Sequence record: PQ511146.1
Direction: 5' to 3' (one strand)
DNA: 64,000 nt
From: Escherichia phage NHEP1
The notes under the pieces are model-generated. The model was not told the origin of the DNA, searched no databases, and worked only from the letters and a program-made list of their open reading frames with translations. Shown one piece after another: positions 1,430 through 11,120 of the stretch (positions are counted from its first letter, which is position 1; each line of letters begins with the position of its first letter). The position numbers were made by a program, and so were the translations under genes.

Positions 1430-4400
1430 TTAGTGACAATCACCCCAGTTACGACCGCACAAGTATTCACCTGTGATCTGGAACGGAACGCCCATCATTT
1501 TAGAAGCCTGCCAGAAGCAATGCACCACCATTTCGCCCACAGGGCTCCAGATAAGCTCAAGCTTTCCGTCATCATTCAAGATAGGATCGTATACCGTATT
1601 TCCATCCTTGTCAACCACTTCGTTTCCGTCCTCATCTTTGCGTGCCTTTTTGTACTTATGACCGTCGAACACATGAAGTTTAGCCTCTTGTTGGGCTTTA
1701 AATGTTTCCAGCTCTTCAATTGTGTCGAAGGTGTATACGGTTTTATACTTAGGTGTGTCAGGCACTTGAAGCTGATATTCGTCATGGTAATAGATAATAC
1801 GACGAACACCCTCATCATACCATCCACGCTTCACCATCTGGTGGTGCATGAGGATTCCGACCAAGTCGCACAACGATGCACCGCCATTTTGCTGATATGC
1901 ATTAAGCAAAGAGTGTTTAGAGCGGGTCCAAATGGCATGCCCGTCAAAAGAGTAGATAAATTTCTTACCTGTTGCTTCCCAGAATTTCTCCAGATCCTCT
2001 TTACGCCCCTTAAGGCCCGGGTTGGCATCCCAGAGAGCATCAATTACTCTCTGTCCAAGTTCTGGAGAGATATCTAGCATATCTGCAACTTTATCTTTTT
2101 GTGCCCCGTACATAACCCCATATGTGACAGGCTTACCATCGTTACGGGAAATCTCCTTGCCTGCTACAGAAGAGTAAGCTTTGGCGTTATTACAGTTACC
2201 GCACACTGCCACTTTACCATTCCTTCTCACAATGATTGCTCCAGAAGGGACGGTAACGCAATAAACCAAAGAACCGCTCACCTCGACAGACTCTTTAGAT
2301 AGTGTCAGCAACCCTGCTCTCTGTTTGCTACCAATCGTGATTCTGTGCTGTACGGAACGACCTTTTTTGTGAATCGCCACCGTATTATTCCGTAAACCAC
2401 ACTGAGTAGCCAGCGCAGACACAACCTCTACAGATTTCTTCCTGCACCCGGCCTGAGAGTAGTAGGCAACTTTTCCACCTTCGGAAGATACCCACCCGTC
2501 CCAGTTAGATAAAGAAGCTATAAACAGGTTTTTAGATTCTTTATCAAGGTCCATCAGGTTGTAGGTGAAATCCTTATTGCTGTCCAAAAACTCAAATACC
2601 CAGGACGGAACGTGGAATTGGAACCTTCTCGCCAGTAAGCCCCCTTTTGTGGTTTTCCCGCTCTGCTCTACATAACTAAGGCTTAGAGCAGAAAAAGTAT
2701 CTAAAAGCGTTGCAACTTTTCTGCCCTTCCCGACCTGAATCCTGCACACGATGCTGCCGTCCTTATTTGTATGCAAGTGCCCATCATCGTGAATAGCAAT
2801 AAGCAAATTAACCTGGGCAGGAGATAAGGTTGTATTCCCATAAAACTCTGCCGCATGGATAAACCTTCTTCCTGAATTAGACCCTTTACCTGCTTTCAGG
2901 TCTTTTGCCAAATCTTCAAACAATTTATTGCTTCTGTGATCCACGGTCAGCATCCTGTGTTGATCTGTAACCATAAAATCCACACTGCTGTTGTGGAAAT
3001 GATACATATCCCCACAATAACTACGCTTAACGTAATTTAATGGAGTAACAAGGTTCATCGACGAGGTGTTGTGATCGTACTGGAACACCTGTGTTCCCGG
3101 ATCAAGATCTTCAAACCTCACCCACCCTTTCTCCGTGAGAATTTGTGTATCTCCTGAATAACAGTGTGCATCGCCGTTACTTACAACATCATAATACAGA
3201 CCGTTGTCAAACTCAAAGGCACCCCAGGCCCCGATGAGCTGCTCTAAGTTGGACCCGTCAATACCGATCTCAAAGTATCCTGGAGGAACACCCCACAGAC
3301 TACGCATCTCTTTACCCATAACCACTTTAGGAGATGGTTTAGGCATGTTTGCACAAATACTATGTTTCTGTCTGGAAGTGTTTGTTAATCCAGAACTTTT
3401 AGCAGGAAGCTTGTGGTCAATCTTCAAACGTGGATGATTAAGAAGACCAGTATCAACCTTATCTTCCTTGATTGGATCAAGGACCGATCTGCGGTTTCGC
3501 AATGATAACCACAAAACGATATCTTTAGCCATCTCTCCGTTCAATTTTTCAAGATTCGGGCACAGGTGTCCAAACGTATCTTTCAGTTGCGGAGAAGTAA
3601 TAAGCGCTCTGGCTTTTCTACGTATCTTCCCAAACACTTCCTTTTTAATCCTTTCTGAGTTAGGGAAGCTTCGGAACTTATGCACAGTTGTCTGGAACTT
3701 GGCATCAGTTTTGTTCCAGAAGTTGATAATTAGATCACAATACTCTGACTCCAAAAGCTCGTCCATATATGCATATACTCGTGCATCAACATCTGCATCA
3801 GGTAAAGCTTTCTTCTTGCTGTCTTTAGTTACATCTTTAGTTCTCCACATTGTTGGGAGCCAACCAGCACTGATCAGGTATCGCTTGATGTCGTCCTGAT
3901 TGCTGATTTTCATAGGTATCTTGCAGTCAGGCATTCGCTTCTGCTGTAGGTCACTTATCGCCTGATCCATCAGCTCTTTAGGTAAAGGGTGTGGTGTAGA
4001 AGTTCCTTTGATATACCCCCTCAAGAAATCAGCCATCTTATCGGGGTCTTTACAGCCCATCTCTTCACACCATTTTATCCCCATCTTACTTACATCCCCT
4101 GTGGAGGTAAATGCTCGCTTAGGAGGAGCTTTGAACTCTAAAGCACTCATGTCCACAGGGTAGCCAAGCTTGTCTTTTAACCATTTCCAACCATTATTGG
4201 AGATTGTCCCATCTTGGTTAAACGGCTTTTCAGGGAACTTAGGCCGCTGAGACATTGATAACTCTTTTAAAGGAAGTTGTGGTTCAACACGATCAGCGAT
4301 CTCTTTCATCCACGCATCGCAACGGTCACGTAAAGCAATAGCCCCATCTATGTCGAAATACACCCCCTGTCGAGCCTGCAGCTCCATCAGGAAGTGCTGT

Positions 4401-5176
4401 AACATGCCTCGGCGTAATGCGTTCTTCCAGGTGATCTTCTTGAAGCCTTTCGGCTTCTCTTTGGCAGGATCGTACATAAAGTTCTGCATGTCAGATTTGC
4501 CGTAGAATACACCTTTTGATTCCGCTACCAACTCCTTCCAGAGCAACTCCTGGATGATAACGTCCTCGAACACACGATCCACATACTTCCACAGTGGAAG
4601 CTCACGCCAGTCATCGATTTGAACTTTCTGGTTACCAAGGGCATAGCCCCATGCCATAAGGCCATGAGGCCCAACAGGCTGCATTTTCTTGGTAACTGGA
4701 TTGAATACTGCGTCCGGACAACCTTTTGGCAAAGGGCGGTCAGGCCACAAGATTCGGCTCATCGCTAACGTATCAAACAGATTAACCGGGTGGTCGTTGA
4801 TAGTCCCCATGCATTTAGGATCACGGAACATATCAAAATGAATACCGGATAATCTTTCCATCAGCATAAAGTCGTAACTGTAGCAGTTATGACAGTTCAA
4901 AGCCGTAGGTGACCAGTCTGAATTGCCTGTAAGCCAACCTTCCAACTCTGAAAAATCTGCTATGCGAGCCTCAAAATCTGTATAAAGGGTCTTCTTTGCC
5001 AGAATGAAGTTCTTAGCTTTCTCCACATCCTCTTCAGAGTAGTGTGTGCGGTCATTTAGAGGAAGGAACAGCATAAAACGGTTCTTATTCAGCTCTTTAA
5101 ACAAACCGCAGTGATAATAAAGATCTGGGTCTTCCAGCAGGCCAGAGGCCTCAAAATCGAACGACCACATGCTCAT
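1430..5176 (-). CDS. DNA polymerase, family A, with N-terminal 3'-5' exonuclease domain; intein-containing precursor
   Basis: 1248 aa; Exo I motif FDFEASGL; Pol A motif A-like IDGSNLEQL, motif B KxxxYGxMYG, motif C YYHDE; AAGGAG SD before ATG at 5176. Confidence 0.9.
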   Translation of the reverse strand: MSMWSFDFEASGLLEDPDLYYHCGLFKELNKNRFMLFLPLNDRTHYSEEDVEKAKNFILAKKTLYTDFEARIADFSELEGWLTGNSDWSPTALNCHNCYSYDFMLMERLSGIHFDMFRDPKCMGTINDHPVNLFDTLAMSRILWPDRPLPKGCPDAVFNPVTKKMQPVGPHGLMAWGYALGNQKVQIDDWRELPLWKYVDRVFEDVIIQELLWKELVAESKGVFYGKSDMQNFMYDPAKEKPKGFKKITWKNALRRGMLQHFLMELQARQGVYFDIDGAIALRDRCDAWMKEIADRVEPQLPLKELSMSQRPKFPEKPFNQDGTISNNGWKWLKDKLGYPVDMSALEFKAPPKRAFTSTGDVSKMGIKWCEEMGCKDPDKMADFLRGYIKGTSTPHPLPKELMDQAISDLQQKRMPDCKIPMKISNQDDIKRYLISAGWLPTMWRTKDVTKDSKKKALPDADVDARVYAYMDELLESEYCDLIINFWNKTDAKFQTTVHKFRSFPNSERIKKEVFGKIRRKARALITSPQLKDTFGHLCPNLEKLNGEMAKDIVLWLSLRNRRSVLDPIKEDKVDTGLLNHPRLKIDHKLPAKSSGLTNTSRQKHSICANMPKPSPKVVMGKEMRSLWGVPPGYFEIGIDGSNLEQLIGAWGAFEFDNGLYYDVVSNGDAHCYSGDTQILTEKGWVRFEDLDPGTQVFQYDHNTSSMNLVTPLNYVKRSYCGDMYHFHNSSVDFMVTDQHRMLTVDHRSNKLFEDLAKDLKAGKGSNSGRRFIHAAEFYGNTTLSPAQVNLLIAIHDDGHLHTNKDGSIVCRIQVGKGRKVATLLDTFSALSLSYVEQSGKTTKGGLLARRFQFHVPSWVFEFLDSNKDFTYNLMDLDKESKNLFIASLSNWDGWVSSEGGKVAYYSQAGCRKKSVEVVSALATQCGLRNNTVAIHKKGRSVQHRITIGSKQRAGLLTLSKESVEVSGSLVYCVTVPSGAIIVRRNGKVAVCGNCNNAKAYSSVAGKEISRNDGKPVTYGVMYGAQKDKVADMLDISPELGQRVIDALWDANPGLKGRKEDLEKFWEATGKKFIYSFDGHAIWTRSKHSLLNAYQQNGGASLCDLVGILMHHQMVKRGWYDEGVRRIIYYHDEYQLQVPDTPKYKTVYTFDTIEELETFKAQQEAKLHVFDGHKYKKARKDEDGNEVVDKDGNTVYDPILNDDGKLELIWSPVGEMVVHCFWQASKMMGVPFQITGEYLCGRNWGDCH
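2195..3163 (-). mobile_element. intein (about 323 aa) in DNA polymerase between motifs A and B, with putative LAGLIDADG-type homing endonuclease
   Basis: Begins CYSGDTQIL (block A, Cys1 codon at 3163-3161); TxxH block B (VTDQH); LLIAIHDDG and IASLSNWDG resemble LAGLIDADG; ends ...VAVCGN with +1 Cys; motif B resumes right after. Confidence 0.7.
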
Positions 5177-5234
5177 ATACAGTTCTCCTTAAAGGGGAGG
5201 CGGTTGTACTACCCCTCCCACTCTTGGTTAAACA

Positions 5235-7313
5235 TTAAAAAGGTGTTTCGTCGTCTTCAAAACCAGGAACGTGGTTAGAGGACGGATCATCATACTGAAG
5301 GTCTTCCTGTGTGTCAACAGGGTTAACAGCAGGGGTTATAACCTTATCAGCCACAACCTTGCCCACAGGTGTTTCTACAACTGCATGCTCCTGATCCTCA
5401 AACATAGCCTGAGGTCTCCAAACAACCTCCCCACCTTCCCCGTCTGTAAACATCTGCATTTCTTTGTCCCAGTACCAGTTGCTGGCATCATAGAACTTGC
5501 CTGTGTGGGGATCCATAACTAGAGTGTCCGCAATACCTAAGGTTTTTGCTGGGCGGTTTTTAAGACCTACCAGTCGGACACGTCCACGGGAACGATCCAC
5601 CATCTCCTCTGCCTCTACCCCGACAACCACCCAGCTAAGTTGCTCCAATCCGGCACTACCGCGAAGGTTCTCTTTTCGTACAGGGTACCAGAAAGGTAAC
5701 GGATTTCCATCCTTATCCTTCGGAGGTACAATCTCTGTGCGCTTCAGGTGAGCAATCACCAAGATAAACACATTAAACTGCTTACAGAACGCGGCTAGTT
5801 GAGTCATAGCCATGTCAAGCTCTTTACGCTCATCCTTAACATTAAGCCCTGAAATCACCATAGACAGGTGATCCAGCACAATGTAACGGCAGTGATACAG
5901 GCACACCATTTGTTTAAGCTTAGTGATCAGCTCATCTACAGGGATGGAGCCGAAATGCTTGAACACTTTGATTTTTCCGGCCTTGGCCCAAGATTGATGA
6001 ATCTCAGCGTGCTCCTGATCGGTCAGGAACTGACTGGGGTCTTCAACAAACTCTTTAACATCAAACCCCAGCTGGTTAGCGTACAGAGAGTTGATTGCTT
6101 CCTCAGGATCCTCTTCAAGGTGAATCAGGCACAGGCGATCATCCTCTTCATAATCATCAGCTTTAGGGCATGTTGGATCCATCAAGTATCTTGCAATGCA
6201 ATGTTCCAGCTTCTTGGCTACAGTTGTTTTACCACCGCCAGACGGGCCTGTCAGCATCATCAAGGTGCCTTTGTGGAGTCCTTTCAGCATCTTCTGCAGT
6301 TTAGGGAACTCTGCACTGATATCTACGCCATTGGAAGTCTTCTTACGAAGAGATTCAATGGAGAAGTCTTCTAAATCAGATACAGCATCAGGCACATATT
6401 TGACTGGGTGACGGAACATGTTGACAATATCTTCCAGCTTTTTAGCCTTCAGCATGTCACGAATATCTTTTACACCATCAGGGTCGTTTACCTCACCCGG
6501 GTATTCCACGTGGTAAACGTTATCAGCCATCAAAAATGCTGCGATATTATGTGTGGCTTCAACACCTTTAATAACGTGTTTTTGCTTCTCTACCTCGTTA
6601 GCTGCATCGTTGTCCATTGCAAGGACCACTGTTCCGTAGCTACGGATAAATTTCTCATTGTTCGCAAAAGTGTCTACGGCGTTTGCACACCCACAGTTAA
6701 TTCCAACAAAAGGCAGGCATGGTTTTCCTGCCAGATCCCCGCCGTTGATAACTGCATCAATCCCATCCTGGACTTCTTTAGCCCACTGCTTCACCTTCGC
6801 TGGGGCTTTAGCATTGGTGAGAATTCCTTTTACTTGTATCTGATATGCAGCCTGCCACGCTGCAATAACATCTCCTTCTCCCTCACAAACGTTAATCTGC
6901 TTACGGTTGTTGGAGGATGCACACAGCTTTTGACCAAACATCTGGGAGTTGGCCTTTACTATGCCAACAACCGAGAAATGGCCCCTTTGCTCTTTAGGGA
7001 TTGTCCAGTCACGCTTTTTAAAGCCAGATAGATTACCGTAGCGGTCATAATACGGAAAGTAGGTGGCAGTAACAGTTACACCATCCTCTTGGGATAGCGA
7101 TGATCGTACACCAAAATATTGTGCAGCCATCAGTCCAATATTTTGTTGTGGAACAGGGACAATTTTAGTGTTTTCTAAAACAGTCTCCACAGTTTCAACT
7201 TCTTTTTCATCACGATAGTCTCGTTTCACACTCCCCCCACTTTTATACTTAGTTGCTTTCGGGTTTGGCTCACCGAAACGGTTGTATGCAGATGCCATGA
7301 ATTTACTGCCCAT
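5235..7313 (-). CDS. DNA primase/helicase (TOPRIM-like N-terminal region plus DnaB-like ATPase)
   Basis: 692 aa; Walker A LTGPSGGGKTT, Walker B-like YIVLDHLS; acidic VLAMDNDAANE region N-terminal of the ATPase; AAGGAG SD. Confidence 0.7.
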   Translation of the reverse strand: MGSKFMASAYNRFGEPNPKATKYKSGGSVKRDYRDEKEVETVETVLENTKIVPVPQQNIGLMAAQYFGVRSSLSQEDGVTVTATYFPYYDRYGNLSGFKKRDWTIPKEQRGHFSVVGIVKANSQMFGQKLCASSNNRKQINVCEGEGDVIAAWQAAYQIQVKGILTNAKAPAKVKQWAKEVQDGIDAVINGGDLAGKPCLPFVGINCGCANAVDTFANNEKFIRSYGTVVLAMDNDAANEVEKQKHVIKGVEATHNIAAFLMADNVYHVEYPGEVNDPDGVKDIRDMLKAKKLEDIVNMFRHPVKYVPDAVSDLEDFSIESLRKKTSNGVDISAEFPKLQKMLKGLHKGTLMMLTGPSGGGKTTVAKKLEHCIARYLMDPTCPKADDYEEDDRLCLIHLEEDPEEAINSLYANQLGFDVKEFVEDPSQFLTDQEHAEIHQSWAKAGKIKVFKHFGSIPVDELITKLKQMVCLYHCRYIVLDHLSMVISGLNVKDERKELDMAMTQLAAFCKQFNVFILVIAHLKRTEIVPPKDKDGNPLPFWYPVRKENLRGSAGLEQLSWVVVGVEAEEMVDRSRGRVRLVGLKNRPAKTLGIADTLVMDPHTGKFYDASNWYWDKEMQMFTDGEGGEVVWRPQAMFEDQEHAVVETPVGKVVADKVITPAVNPVDTQEDLQYDDPSSNHVPGFEDDETPF

Positions 7314-9373: not shown

Positions 9374-10717
9374 TTACTCTAAATCTTCTTCTGAGTCAAG
9401 CTTATCTTTCACAGCTAAATTAGGGGCAAGTTTGTAATAGCGAAAGCCCCCACCGCCTTGCCAGTTTACAGATTTAGAAATACCACTTTGATCTTCACCA
9501 TCGATCACTTTTTGCAAGCGTGGAATAATATGGGTATGACAATGATCTCCTAGCTCAACCGAGATCCAACGTCTTTTCATCTTGTGAGCTACAGCAGCAG
9601 TAGTTCCAGAACCACCAAATGAATCCAATACTAAATCTCCTTCTCGCGTACACATTTCTAAAATCCGCTTCAAAAGCGCTTCAGGTTTTTTTCCATTTTT
9701 GAAACTAACGCCCCCTTCATTTGCTATTCCATTCCAACTAATGTCAGTCCAAACATCAGTTATTAGTTCAGCAGGCTGCATCTCACCGTCAATTTCCAAA
9801 AGCCTGTTGGAATAAAAGACCATTTGCCTACCATTTGCGATATAAAAGCCTTCGACATCCTCATTTGGATGTACATAAACCTTATCCCTATCTTTCTTTG
9901 ACTTCTCGATAGTTTCTTTTCTCTTTATTTTGGCACCACCGCCAATTGCAACGGATTGAAATACACGTTCTGCATTATCAATTGCAAATTGTGCTAATTC
10001 ATCATCAAATGTATCAGGCAGTTTTTTCTTGGCTTCTTTTGTATCTTTATAGCCATTGGCCTTTGCAAACGCATCGGCAATACCGCACCACGTCCAACTT
10101 TTATAATGGTCATCTGGGTTTAATAGATATTTGTTATATCCCGTATCATACTCTTTAGGTATATAGATTTTGTTAAGTGGTTTCTTGGTACGATCTTTTG
10201 CATATACAAGCAAAAAGTTTGCTGTGGAGAAAACTGTAGTTCCTGTTGCCTTAAAGCCTGAAGGGCAATTTGTAGTCATCGATATGGTATTTAACTGATT
10301 TGCACGACCAAAAATCTCGTCCATCAAGACTTTTAAATAAGCCATTTCGCAGTCATCTAAGTGAACGAATATCACTCCATCATCGCTTAGCAGATTACGA
10401 ATTATTTCTAATCTGTCCCGCATTAAGCCCAGCCAAAGGGAGTGCTCCAGGCTATCATCGTAGTGCTCAAAATCCCTTCCGGTATTGAATGGCGGGTCTA
10501 TGTAAACACACTTCACTTTGCCTGCATACTCTTGCTCTAGTGCCTTCAATGCCAGTAAGTTATCTCCAAAAATCAGTTTATTATCAAAAATATCGTTTTC
10601 GGTCACCTTTTTACTGGCGTGATAAGACTTGCTCGAATCTTCTAACAAAATGTGAGGCTCTAGCTTTTTGCGCTCGTTCTTACCTATCCAGGTAAGTTCT
10701 AATTTGGTTTTACTCAT
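9374..10717 (-). CDS. DNA methyltransferase, N6-adenine/N4-cytosine beta class
   Basis: 447 aa; motif IV IDPPF precedes motif I DSFGGSGTT (beta-class order). Confidence 0.85.
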   Translation of the reverse strand: MSKTKLELTWIGKNERKKLEPHILLEDSSKSYHASKKVTENDIFDNKLIFGDNLLALKALEQEYAGKVKCVYIDPPFNTGRDFEHYDDSLEHSLWLGLMRDRLEIIRNLLSDDGVIFVHLDDCEMAYLKVLMDEIFGRANQLNTISMTTNCPSGFKATGTTVFSTANFLLVYAKDRTKKPLNKIYIPKEYDTGYNKYLLNPDDHYKSWTWCGIADAFAKANGYKDTKEAKKKLPDTFDDELAQFAIDNAERVFQSVAIGGGAKIKRKETIEKSKKDRDKVYVHPNEDVEGFYIANGRQMVFYSNRLLEIDGEMQPAELITDVWTDISWNGIANEGGVSFKNGKKPEALLKRILEMCTREGDLVLDSFGGSGTTAAVAHKMKRRWISVELGDHCHTHIIPRLQKVIDGEDQSGISKSVNWQGGGGFRYYKLAPNLAVKDKLDSEEDLE

Positions 10718-10743: not shown

Positions 10744-10761
10744 GGGGAGGAGTGCCTCCCC
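10744..10761. other. perfect intergenic hairpin GGGGAGG-AGTG-CCTCCCC
   Basis: 7-bp GC-rich inverted repeat between methyltransferase start and upstream gene stop; no U-tract on the coding (minus) strand. Confidence 0.4.
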
Positions 10762-10778
10762 TTTATACTCACATCTTA

Positions 10779-11120
10779 CTACTCAAGGTCTTCAGAGTCA
10801 AGCTCAAAAAGAATCAAACTGTGCATGCCTGCAGAGAGATCAACACACCCTGCAACAATAAGGGTTTGATAGTAAGGTTCAGCACCCTCAATATCTTCGT
10901 TAAAATCCACAACAAGGTAGTCACCTTTGTTAAAGGTGTATTTGTCCGATGTAAACGCAAAACCTGCCCAGTCCCCTACTGCAGGATCTTTATCAGTCAC
11001 CTTTGTTAGCAGTAGATCTTTTTCACGAGATCTTTTAGTAAAATCGTGAATCACAACATCCTTCTCTTCAGGAGTCGGATTGCCACACACGTAGTTAACG
11101 ATATTTCTCCACAAACTCAT
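10779..11120 (-). CDS. hypothetical protein
   Basis: 113 aa ORF; stop overlaps start region of next gene. Confidence 0.55.
   Translation of the reverse strand: MSLWRNIVNYVCGNPTPEEKDVVIHDFTKRSREKDLLLTKVTDKDPAVGDWAGFAFTSDKYTFNKGDYLVVDFNEDIEGAEPYYQTLIVAGCVDLSAGMHSLILFELDSEDLE

Follow-up and report, generated by a model that had tools for sequence, protein, structure and literature searches.

A hairpin located between the helicase and DNA polymerase genes of Escherichia phage NHEP1 is not a product of chance: it is maintained by compensatory evolution on the mRNA-sense strand and is very probably a control element for making the polymerase. Our favoured reading, held with moderate confidence, is that it would serve as a gene-specific leader operator, through which a sequence-specific binder controls polymerase translation. 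The window, i.e. the whole analysed stretch of 64,000 nucleotides, derives from an rV5/FV3-like E. coli myovirus (genus Vequintavirus), and the closest sequence match of the locus is phage ECP32 (98.7% identity over 1.1 kb). The locus comprises the following features:

7313..5235, minus strand: DnaB-like primase/helicase gene (ORF list and annotation/Pfam)
5289..5317, minus strand: sigma-70-like promoter TTGACA-17-TATGAT (11/12 consensus matches only)
5237-5235, minus strand: helicase stop codon, 10 nt upstream of the extended stem
5224..5191, minus strand: whole extended hairpin (MFE fold; covariance-model match 5188..5227)
5219..5195, minus strand: core bulged stem-loop GGGAGG-GGU-AGUACA-ACC-G-CCUCCC (fold; homologous positions covary across genera)
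5210-5205, minus strand: hexaloop AGUACA (family consensus NNUACA)
5201, minus strand: 3'-side bulge, G here (1-2 nt in relatives, purine last)
5190-5185, minus strand: polymerase Shine-Dalgarno (SD) sequence AAGGAG (from sequence)
5176-5174, minus strand: polymerase start codon AUG (ORF list; protein identity with the ECP32 polymerase from residue 1)
5176..1430, minus strand: family-A-like DNA polymerase gene, 1248 aa including a putative 323-aa intein, downstream of the hairpin

The extended hairpin consists of AGAG (5224-5221), a U bulge (5220), GGGAGG (5219-5214), GGU (5213-5211) and the AGUACA loop, followed on the 3' side by ACC (5204-5202), the G bulge (5201), CCUCCC (5200-5195) and CUUU (5194-5191), which leads directly into AAGGAG (5190-5185). 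Only the 4 nt of CUUU separate the core stem from the SD, which directly follows the extended stem; an 8-nt spacer, AACUGUAU, lies between SD and AUG. The original prediction had described a GGGAGG...CCUCCC stem with inner GGU/ACC pairing just upstream of the polymerase SD, and both the pairing and the position agree with the minus-strand sequence and its fold. To that description we add the strand, a 4-bp basal extension, the 5' U bulge and the 3' G bulge. The 58-nt intergenic RNA (5177..5234), whose folding had been put forward as a check, forms a stable structure of -21.9 kcal/mol (z = -2.98), which only 1 of 200 dinucleotide shuffles equals in stability. The same hairpin is retained in a 121-nt context, where the overall z is only -1.04. 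Our rejection of a chance fold therefore relies on comparative evidence, which is stronger than single-sequence folding.

Two replication genes of the same orientation flank the hairpin, which lies within an operon and not where a transcription unit ends; in rV5, the helicase and polymerase genes are found inside a proposed long leftward transcription unit (PMC3606486). The only Pfam match of the polymerase ORF is a weak one to DNA_pol_A; the polymerases of relatives are annotated as family A or T7-like, and the rV5 genome paper reports a POLAc domain in the rV5 polymerase (PMC3606486). In phage Murica, a ribosome-binding site (RBS) is annotated at the place equivalent to the AAGGAG SD. The promoter-like site at 5289..5317 falls within the final 80 nt of the helicase gene. 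Transcription from it could yield a separate polymerase mRNA in which about 58 nt precede the hairpin. A similar site is present 62-71 nt upstream in other Vequintavirus and in the L011 clade; a comparable one is absent from the Seunavirus and Mydovirus loci compared, and the site is missing among the 33 rV5 promoters in the rV5 supplementary table (PMC3606486).

The polymerase gene and its sequence records show some further peculiarities. The ORF has 1248 aa here versus 925 aa in ECP32 and carries an in-frame insertion of 323 aa (2195..3163, minus strand) between ...SNGDAH and CNNAKAY... of the polymerase. This insertion starts with CYSGDTQIL, has a weak Pfam Hint_2 match (23.6 bits) and ends with ...VAVCGN followed by Cys, with GN in place of the usual HN; it bears the hallmarks of an intein and probably includes a homing-endonuclease core. 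In the rV5 reference record DQ832317 (L003:933-1030), one additional base early in the polymerase gene (GGTCTCTTCG vs GGTCGTTCG) splits it into a 26-aa 'ORF 229' and a 775-aa polymerase without its N-terminus, which is probably a sequencing or annotation artefact. Furthermore, sixteen 'Campylobacter phage' GenBank records (MG0656xx) have 81-90% identity to E. coli rV5-like phages at the locus and are classified as Vequintavirus; one that we examined is marked UNVERIFIED, and the Campylobacter host attribution of these records looks doubtful.

Helicase-polymerase junctions were drawn from annotated phage records, IMG/VR viral contigs and metagenome contigs. A hairpin of the same architecture, built from other stem sequences, precedes the polymerase SD in the Seunavirus phages 4MG, SSE121, FENT2 and EspYZU12, in Mydovirus (KpS11-like) and Avunavirus (Av-05), and in the metagenomic clades L011/L022/L055, L019, L020 and L069. 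The common architecture comprises a lower stem of 5-9 bp, a 3' bulge of 1-2 nt, an upper stem of 3-4 bp and an NNUACA hexaloop. Hairpins from some of these lineages read as follows:

4MG: AGGUGGGC-GAC[GAUACA]GUC-AA-GCCCACCU
SSE121: ...GGGU-GUC[GAUACA]GAC-CA-ACCC...
Av-05: AGAUGGGC...GCCCAUCU
L019: UGAGGG-CCGU[AGUACA]ACGG-A-CCCUCA
L069: GGACGGGC-GGC[AGUACA]GCC-CA-GCCCGUUC
L020: GCUGC-GAC[AGUAUA]GUC-AA-GCAGC

With the covariance model R1, 40 homologous sites were reduced to 15 distinct sequences and aligned for covariation. Double compensatory changes were found in 11 of the 12 pairs of this alignment, and 91.7% of the cells are paired, versus 31-51% when the partners are slid by 1-3 columns. 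None of 500 column shuffles matches the observed covariation values, although this statistic overstates independence, since the 15 sequences represent about eight related lineages; the slid-partner control preserves relatedness and is more trustworthy, and its outcome is clear-cut. The covariation numbers remain the same in an unfitted MAFFT alignment, and RNAalifold predicts the same structure de novo, with compensation in 10 of 10 pairs. The stability of the hairpin lies between -20 and -24 kcal/mol in most lineages. The hairpin combines what characterizes conserved cis-regulatory RNAs in general: helices supported by covariation, persistence in divergent genomes and a constant place next to one gene.

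The alignment of 15 sequences contains 17 G.U cells versus 2 A.C cells, and in the window the R1 model scores 38.9 bits on the sense strand versus 9.8 bits on the opposite strand, which assigns the structure to the mRNA-sense RNA. These values bear directly on the idea that the site acts at the DNA level, be it as a replication origin or cruciform, as a palindrome bound by a protein or as a target of homing endonucleases. Such a role could be suspected from the position between the two main replication genes and from the insertion of homing-endonuclease genes within about 15 bp of the site on three occasions, but the complementary strand would fold much worse, the compensatory turnover of both arms is unexpected for a DNA palindrome recognized by a protein, and on manual check the NNUACA loop misfits the -10/-35 arrangement of sigma-70 promoters. 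We therefore regard a DNA-level function as extremely improbable. A sigma-70 promoter with the loop as its -10 element was also considered and rejected: TACAGT/TACAAC is not accompanied by a matching -35, and T6 is missing in Vequintavirus.

The loop is conserved to a greater extent than the stems: conservation in 14 or more of the 15 sequences is seen at 4 of 6 loop columns but at 3 of 24 stem columns (Fisher P = 0.016). The loop always has 6 nt and occurs as AGUACA (seven sequences), GAUACA (five), GGUACA, GUUACA or AGUAUA; only one of the 15 sequences departs from UACA in the final four bases, with UAUA. The upper stem has 3 bp, or 4 bp in L019. The bulge always occupies the 3' side of the junction of lower and upper stem; read by hand, it is G, AG, AA, CA, UA or A. 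Between clades, the stems are completely replaced, while the UACA loop bases and the 3' purine bulge are retained. The hairpin is similarly tied to the SD: its stem ends 0-9 nt from the SD in all lineages, whereas the upstream stop codon lies anywhere between 10 and about 150 nt away. The linkage to the SD is intact in FENT2, where an additional small ORF is annotated between the helicase gene and the hairpin, and in Av-05, where about 150 nt more sequence is found there.

A hairpin that abuts the SD in every lineage might act through its structure only, as a translational insulator or standby platform that keeps the SD from pairing with upstream coding sequence and needs no trans-acting factor. 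Removal of the hairpin and its flank in silico indeed cuts the predicted accessibility of the SD from 0.76 to 0.07 in L004, from 0.40 to 0.11 in L019 and from 0.32 to 0.12 in L013. This effect is inconsistent, however, and is opposite in L006, L007, L008 and L020; moreover, a purely structural role leaves unexplained why UACA is near-invariant and why the bulge position and the upper-stem length are fixed amid complete stem turnover. We consider it improbable.

Three further ways in which the hairpin region might act were rejected. Some MFE folds paired CCAACUG or GUUU with the SD region, as if a conserved 5' flank sequestered the SD, and ensemble SD accessibility revealed no consistent difference between native and shuffled flanks. 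A pseudoknot between the GUACA loop and the UGUAU before the AUG can be drawn in the window; it was ruled out by the replacement of the spacer in AlexBoehm (through an indel) and in FFH2, and manual inspection found no equivalent in Seunavirus, Mydovirus or L019 sequences. Mimicry of a tRNA anticodon loop was dismissed on manual check, as the position equivalent to U33 is unconserved.

The constancy of the loop, the bulge and the SD distance also weighs on the possibility that the hairpin is an mRNA processing or stability element, which would protect the 3' end of the helicase message or mark and protect the 5' end of a processed polymerase message, with the conserved loop and bulge as the site recognized by an endoribonuclease and not by a repressor. 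Its stability in most lineages and its position between two cistrons of a long operon would suit such an element, the phage uses promoter-proximal 5' hairpins of similar composition elsewhere (e.g. 10761..10744), and the single-stranded ACA/UAC of the loop presumably resembles the target triplets of toxin endoribonucleases, which counts for this possibility. A pure stabilizer, however, would not require a particular sequence in loop or bulge, the SD is at a fixed distance whereas the upstream stop is not, no promoter is consistently adjacent to the hairpin, and the stem of 9-13 bp has about half the length of classical RNase III substrates. Processing or stabilization as the main role thus appears rather unlikely to us. 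With a total of only 9-13 bp, the hairpin also falls short of a T7-type RNase III site, in which some 20 bp, largely double-stranded, include an internal loop.

The example at 10761..10744 (minus strand) is a second hairpin of the window, GGGGAGG-CACU-CCUCCCC, located 11 nt before the SD of the gene 10717..9374 and directly after a promoter-like sequence TTGACT-17-TAAGAT (10801..10773, minus strand). It looks like a promoter-proximal 5' stem-loop. The two structures share a GC-rich stem a few nucleotides upstream of an SD, but the one at 10761..10744 is a plain 7-bp stem with a tetraloop that follows a promoter, whereas that of the polymerase gene has a bulge and a conserved hexaloop and in most lineages lacks an adjacent promoter. 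The covariance model of the polymerase hairpin gives no score at 10761..10744.

Among the Vequintavirus sequences compared, the hairpin is invariant, which reveals constraint but says nothing about structure. Between the window and phage AlexBoehm, there are 0 differences in the 40 positions from the stem base through the SD, while the flanking genes diverge by 21%, or by 44.5% at third codon positions (binomial P = 9e-5 and 6e-11, respectively). The spacer between SD and AUG, right beside the hairpin, has a 4-nt indel and 7 of 12 mismatches in AlexBoehm. The hairpin and the SD are under purifying selection within the genus.

The original prediction had also offered a weak terminator of the primase-helicase gene as an alternative, and this part fails. 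Intrinsic (rho-independent) termination or attenuation behind the helicase gene would be in keeping with the GC-rich stem-loop, with the resemblance of the GGGAGG/CCUCCC stem to the genuine rV5 terminators GGGGAGG...CCUCCC(C) + U-run (Table S4, PMC3606486), with which it also shares the intergenic position, and with the three U that follow the stem in Vequintavirus. A U-tract (at least 5 U in 8) is lacking, however: the sequence after the stem is CUUUAAGG here, of which only UUU could count, and UGCAUAGG, CGUUGAGG or CACCGGAG in relatives, and all other genera have UGCAU, UGAAU, CGUUGA or CACC instead of a U-run. Three terminator scans skip the site: it was called neither by the scan of the window nor by ARNold on rV5 (no entry near 1295xx; PMC3606486), and the nearest terminator of the Murica annotators is inside the polymerase gene. 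In addition, the hairpin differs from the rV5-like terminators in its conserved loop and bulge, its link to the SD and its position within the operon, with the essential polymerase gene immediately downstream in the same transcription unit. Termination is hence a very unlikely function.

The hairpin is a single-copy element. In the window, the model finds one strong match (5188..5227, 38.9 bits, E 7e-9), the next best reaching 14.8 bits, and the weaker matches are plain GC hairpins without the loop and bulge. The complete genomes of ECP32 (38.9 vs 18.2 bits) and 4MG (52.9 vs 16.9 bits) likewise contain one strong match each. On these grounds a multi-copy regulon was rejected: whether filters were on or off, the scans of the window and of both complete genomes showed no second copy. 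The hairpin is also clade-restricted and dispensable, as indicated by its absence from several relatives: it is not found in the Vibrio phages ICP1, PWH3a-P1 and F89, in which the helicase stop runs into the SD, nor at the polymerase junction of Serratia ChuuTotoro, L065 and Certrevirus. A scan of Rfam 15 returned chance-level matches to snoZ247 (21.3 bits, gathering score 38, E 0.11) and mir-202 (E 3.1). We found no earlier description of the hairpin in the literature on rV5, Vequintavirus, Vequintavirinae and PVP-SE1, and the rV5 genome paper and its supplementary tables list nothing at the site (PMC3606486).

At the corresponding position, Certrevirus loci (L043, L045, L062, L064, L066-L068 and L131) contain a sigma-70-like promoter, TTGAYC-N17-TAYYCT, some 70 nt ahead of the start of the polymerase or HNH gene. 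Inverted arms that covary between lineages (GGCAU/AUGCC, UUUCGAA/UUCGAAA or UUUUGGAA/UUCCGAAAA) flank its -10 region, and transcripts from this promoter would lack the 5' arm. This arrangement is reminiscent of T4 genes in which a hairpin at the start site forms only in read-through transcripts.

The start of the polymerase gene itself varies among the relatives. The codon homologous to the AUG of the window is AUU in the Mydovirus type and in L020 (L006:2115-2117, KpS11; L016/L017/L040/L056/L063; L020:4150-4152), AUA in FENT2 (L005:1344-1346) and SSE121 (L007:2067-2069), and UUG in L069 and L076. In the KpS11-type loci and L020, there is no ATG, GTG or TTG from the in-frame stop to the exonuclease DxE motif. 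Because of the non-AUG start codon, the start has been mis-called in several relatives, and the deposited annotations begin the polymerase downstream of the DxE motif, which cuts the exonuclease domain. The weak or non-AUG starts suggest that selection acts on the initiation region to keep its output controlled.

Free-standing HNH homing-endonuclease genes have inserted exactly between the SD and the polymerase AUG in no fewer than three separate lineages. These are FFH2-like Vequintavirus (L002:925-1659, FFH2), KNP2-like Mydovirus (L015/L018/L058) and Certrevirus phiTE/POP18 (L042:1-498 with L131, phiTE; L044, POP18), with further loci in L050/L051. The FFH2-like and KNP2-like genes took over the hairpin and SD, whereas those of Certrevirus took over the different leader and SD of that genus. 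The polymerase start overlaps or abuts the HNH stop, an arrangement that is consistent with translational coupling, by which the hairpin would control both genes. As a whole HNH gene separates the leader element from the AUG in FFH2, the KNP2-like phages and phiTE, direct occlusion of the polymerase RBS is not essential, and the insertions mark the leader as a valued expression signal. Together, the non-AUG starts and the HNH insertions fit a tightly managed initiation region.

A leader operator is favoured by the combination of a covarying helix, an invariant loop tetranucleotide and a fixed purine bulge at the 5' edge of the ribosome footprint of one gene, as is typical of translational operators to which a protein binds. 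The original prediction had likened the hairpin to translational operators used for polymerase autoregulation in some phages, and, unlike the terminator alternative, this likeness has gained in substance through the covarying stems, the conserved loop and bulge, the SD linkage and the single copy per genome. As an operator, the hairpin would be a conserved, gene-specific, cis-acting structure in the polymerase mRNA leader, present both in read-through mRNA from the helicase gene and in mRNA from the internal promoter-like site. We infer that its loop and bulge would be recognized by a factor acting in trans, most probably a phage protein. The binding site would lie at the 5' border of the 30S footprint, from where the bound factor would block or adjust the loading of ribosomes on the SD and thereby set the polymerase level. 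Against an operator counts the predicted SD accessibility, which does not change systematically with native context; likewise, we know of no family-A phage polymerase that autoregulates through such a leader hairpin.

The closest parallel is the operator of the T4/RB69 polymerase. Gp43 binds a hairpin just upstream of its own RBS, with decisive contributions of loop bases; the operator, which overlaps the RBS, is a hairpin-loop of 16-18 nt with a UAAC (or UAAA) loop motif that is common to T4 relatives, some of which lack the gp43 operator system (PMC3014915, the review on which our comparison rests). Both elements are single-copy hairpins immediately 5' of the SD of a replicative polymerase, here with a spacing of 0-9 nt in all lineages, and in both the loop bases are conserved, the stems differ among relatives and the distribution is patchy. 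They share no sequence similarity, however: instead of a UAAC loop on a hairpin of 16-18 nt, we find NNUACA on a bulged stem of 9-13 bp, and gp43 belongs to family B (pol alpha-like), in contrast to the family-A-like polymerase here. Moreover, binding and repression have been demonstrated for T4/RB69, while the operator role of the NNUACA hairpin is deduced from sequence. The NNUACA hairpin would thus be a convergent analogue of the T4/RB69 operator family, not a member of it.

By pure analogy with T4/RB69 gp43, the leading candidate for the binder is the polymerase itself when it is not engaged on DNA, a suggestion that we make tentatively. Equally speculative is a fuller scenario, in which a family-A polymerase, or a dedicated phage RNA-binding protein, would repress its own synthesis through the NNUACA hairpin. 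This would amount to an independent invention of the gp43 strategy, combined in some genera with IF3-sensitive AUU/AUA/UUG starts and repeatedly hijacked by homing-endonuclease genes between the operator/SD and the AUG.

An architectural likeness, and only that, also exists to the coat-protein operators of MS2 and PP7, in which the upper stem is short, the loop is conserved and one purine is bulged, so that together they form a protein-recognition surface at a translation start. Those hairpins enclose the replicase start codon or SD and carry their bulge on the 5' side. The NNUACA hairpin leaves the SD free of its stem and has a 3' bulge, and the two systems are biologically unrelated.

The motif is compact (about 35-40 nt of RNA) and has a clear consensus, which makes it suitable for addition to Rfam, for better annotation of gene starts and as a candidate for a portable protein-RNA switch. 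Vequintavirinae are widely used in therapy and biocontrol, so that the regulation of their replication genes is of practical value. If the hairpin is an operator, it would be a second example, arisen independently in evolution, of a leader hairpin that controls the gene of a phage replicative polymerase, this time for a family-A-like enzyme, and would suggest that translational dosage control of the polymerase is a recurrent need in large lytic phages.
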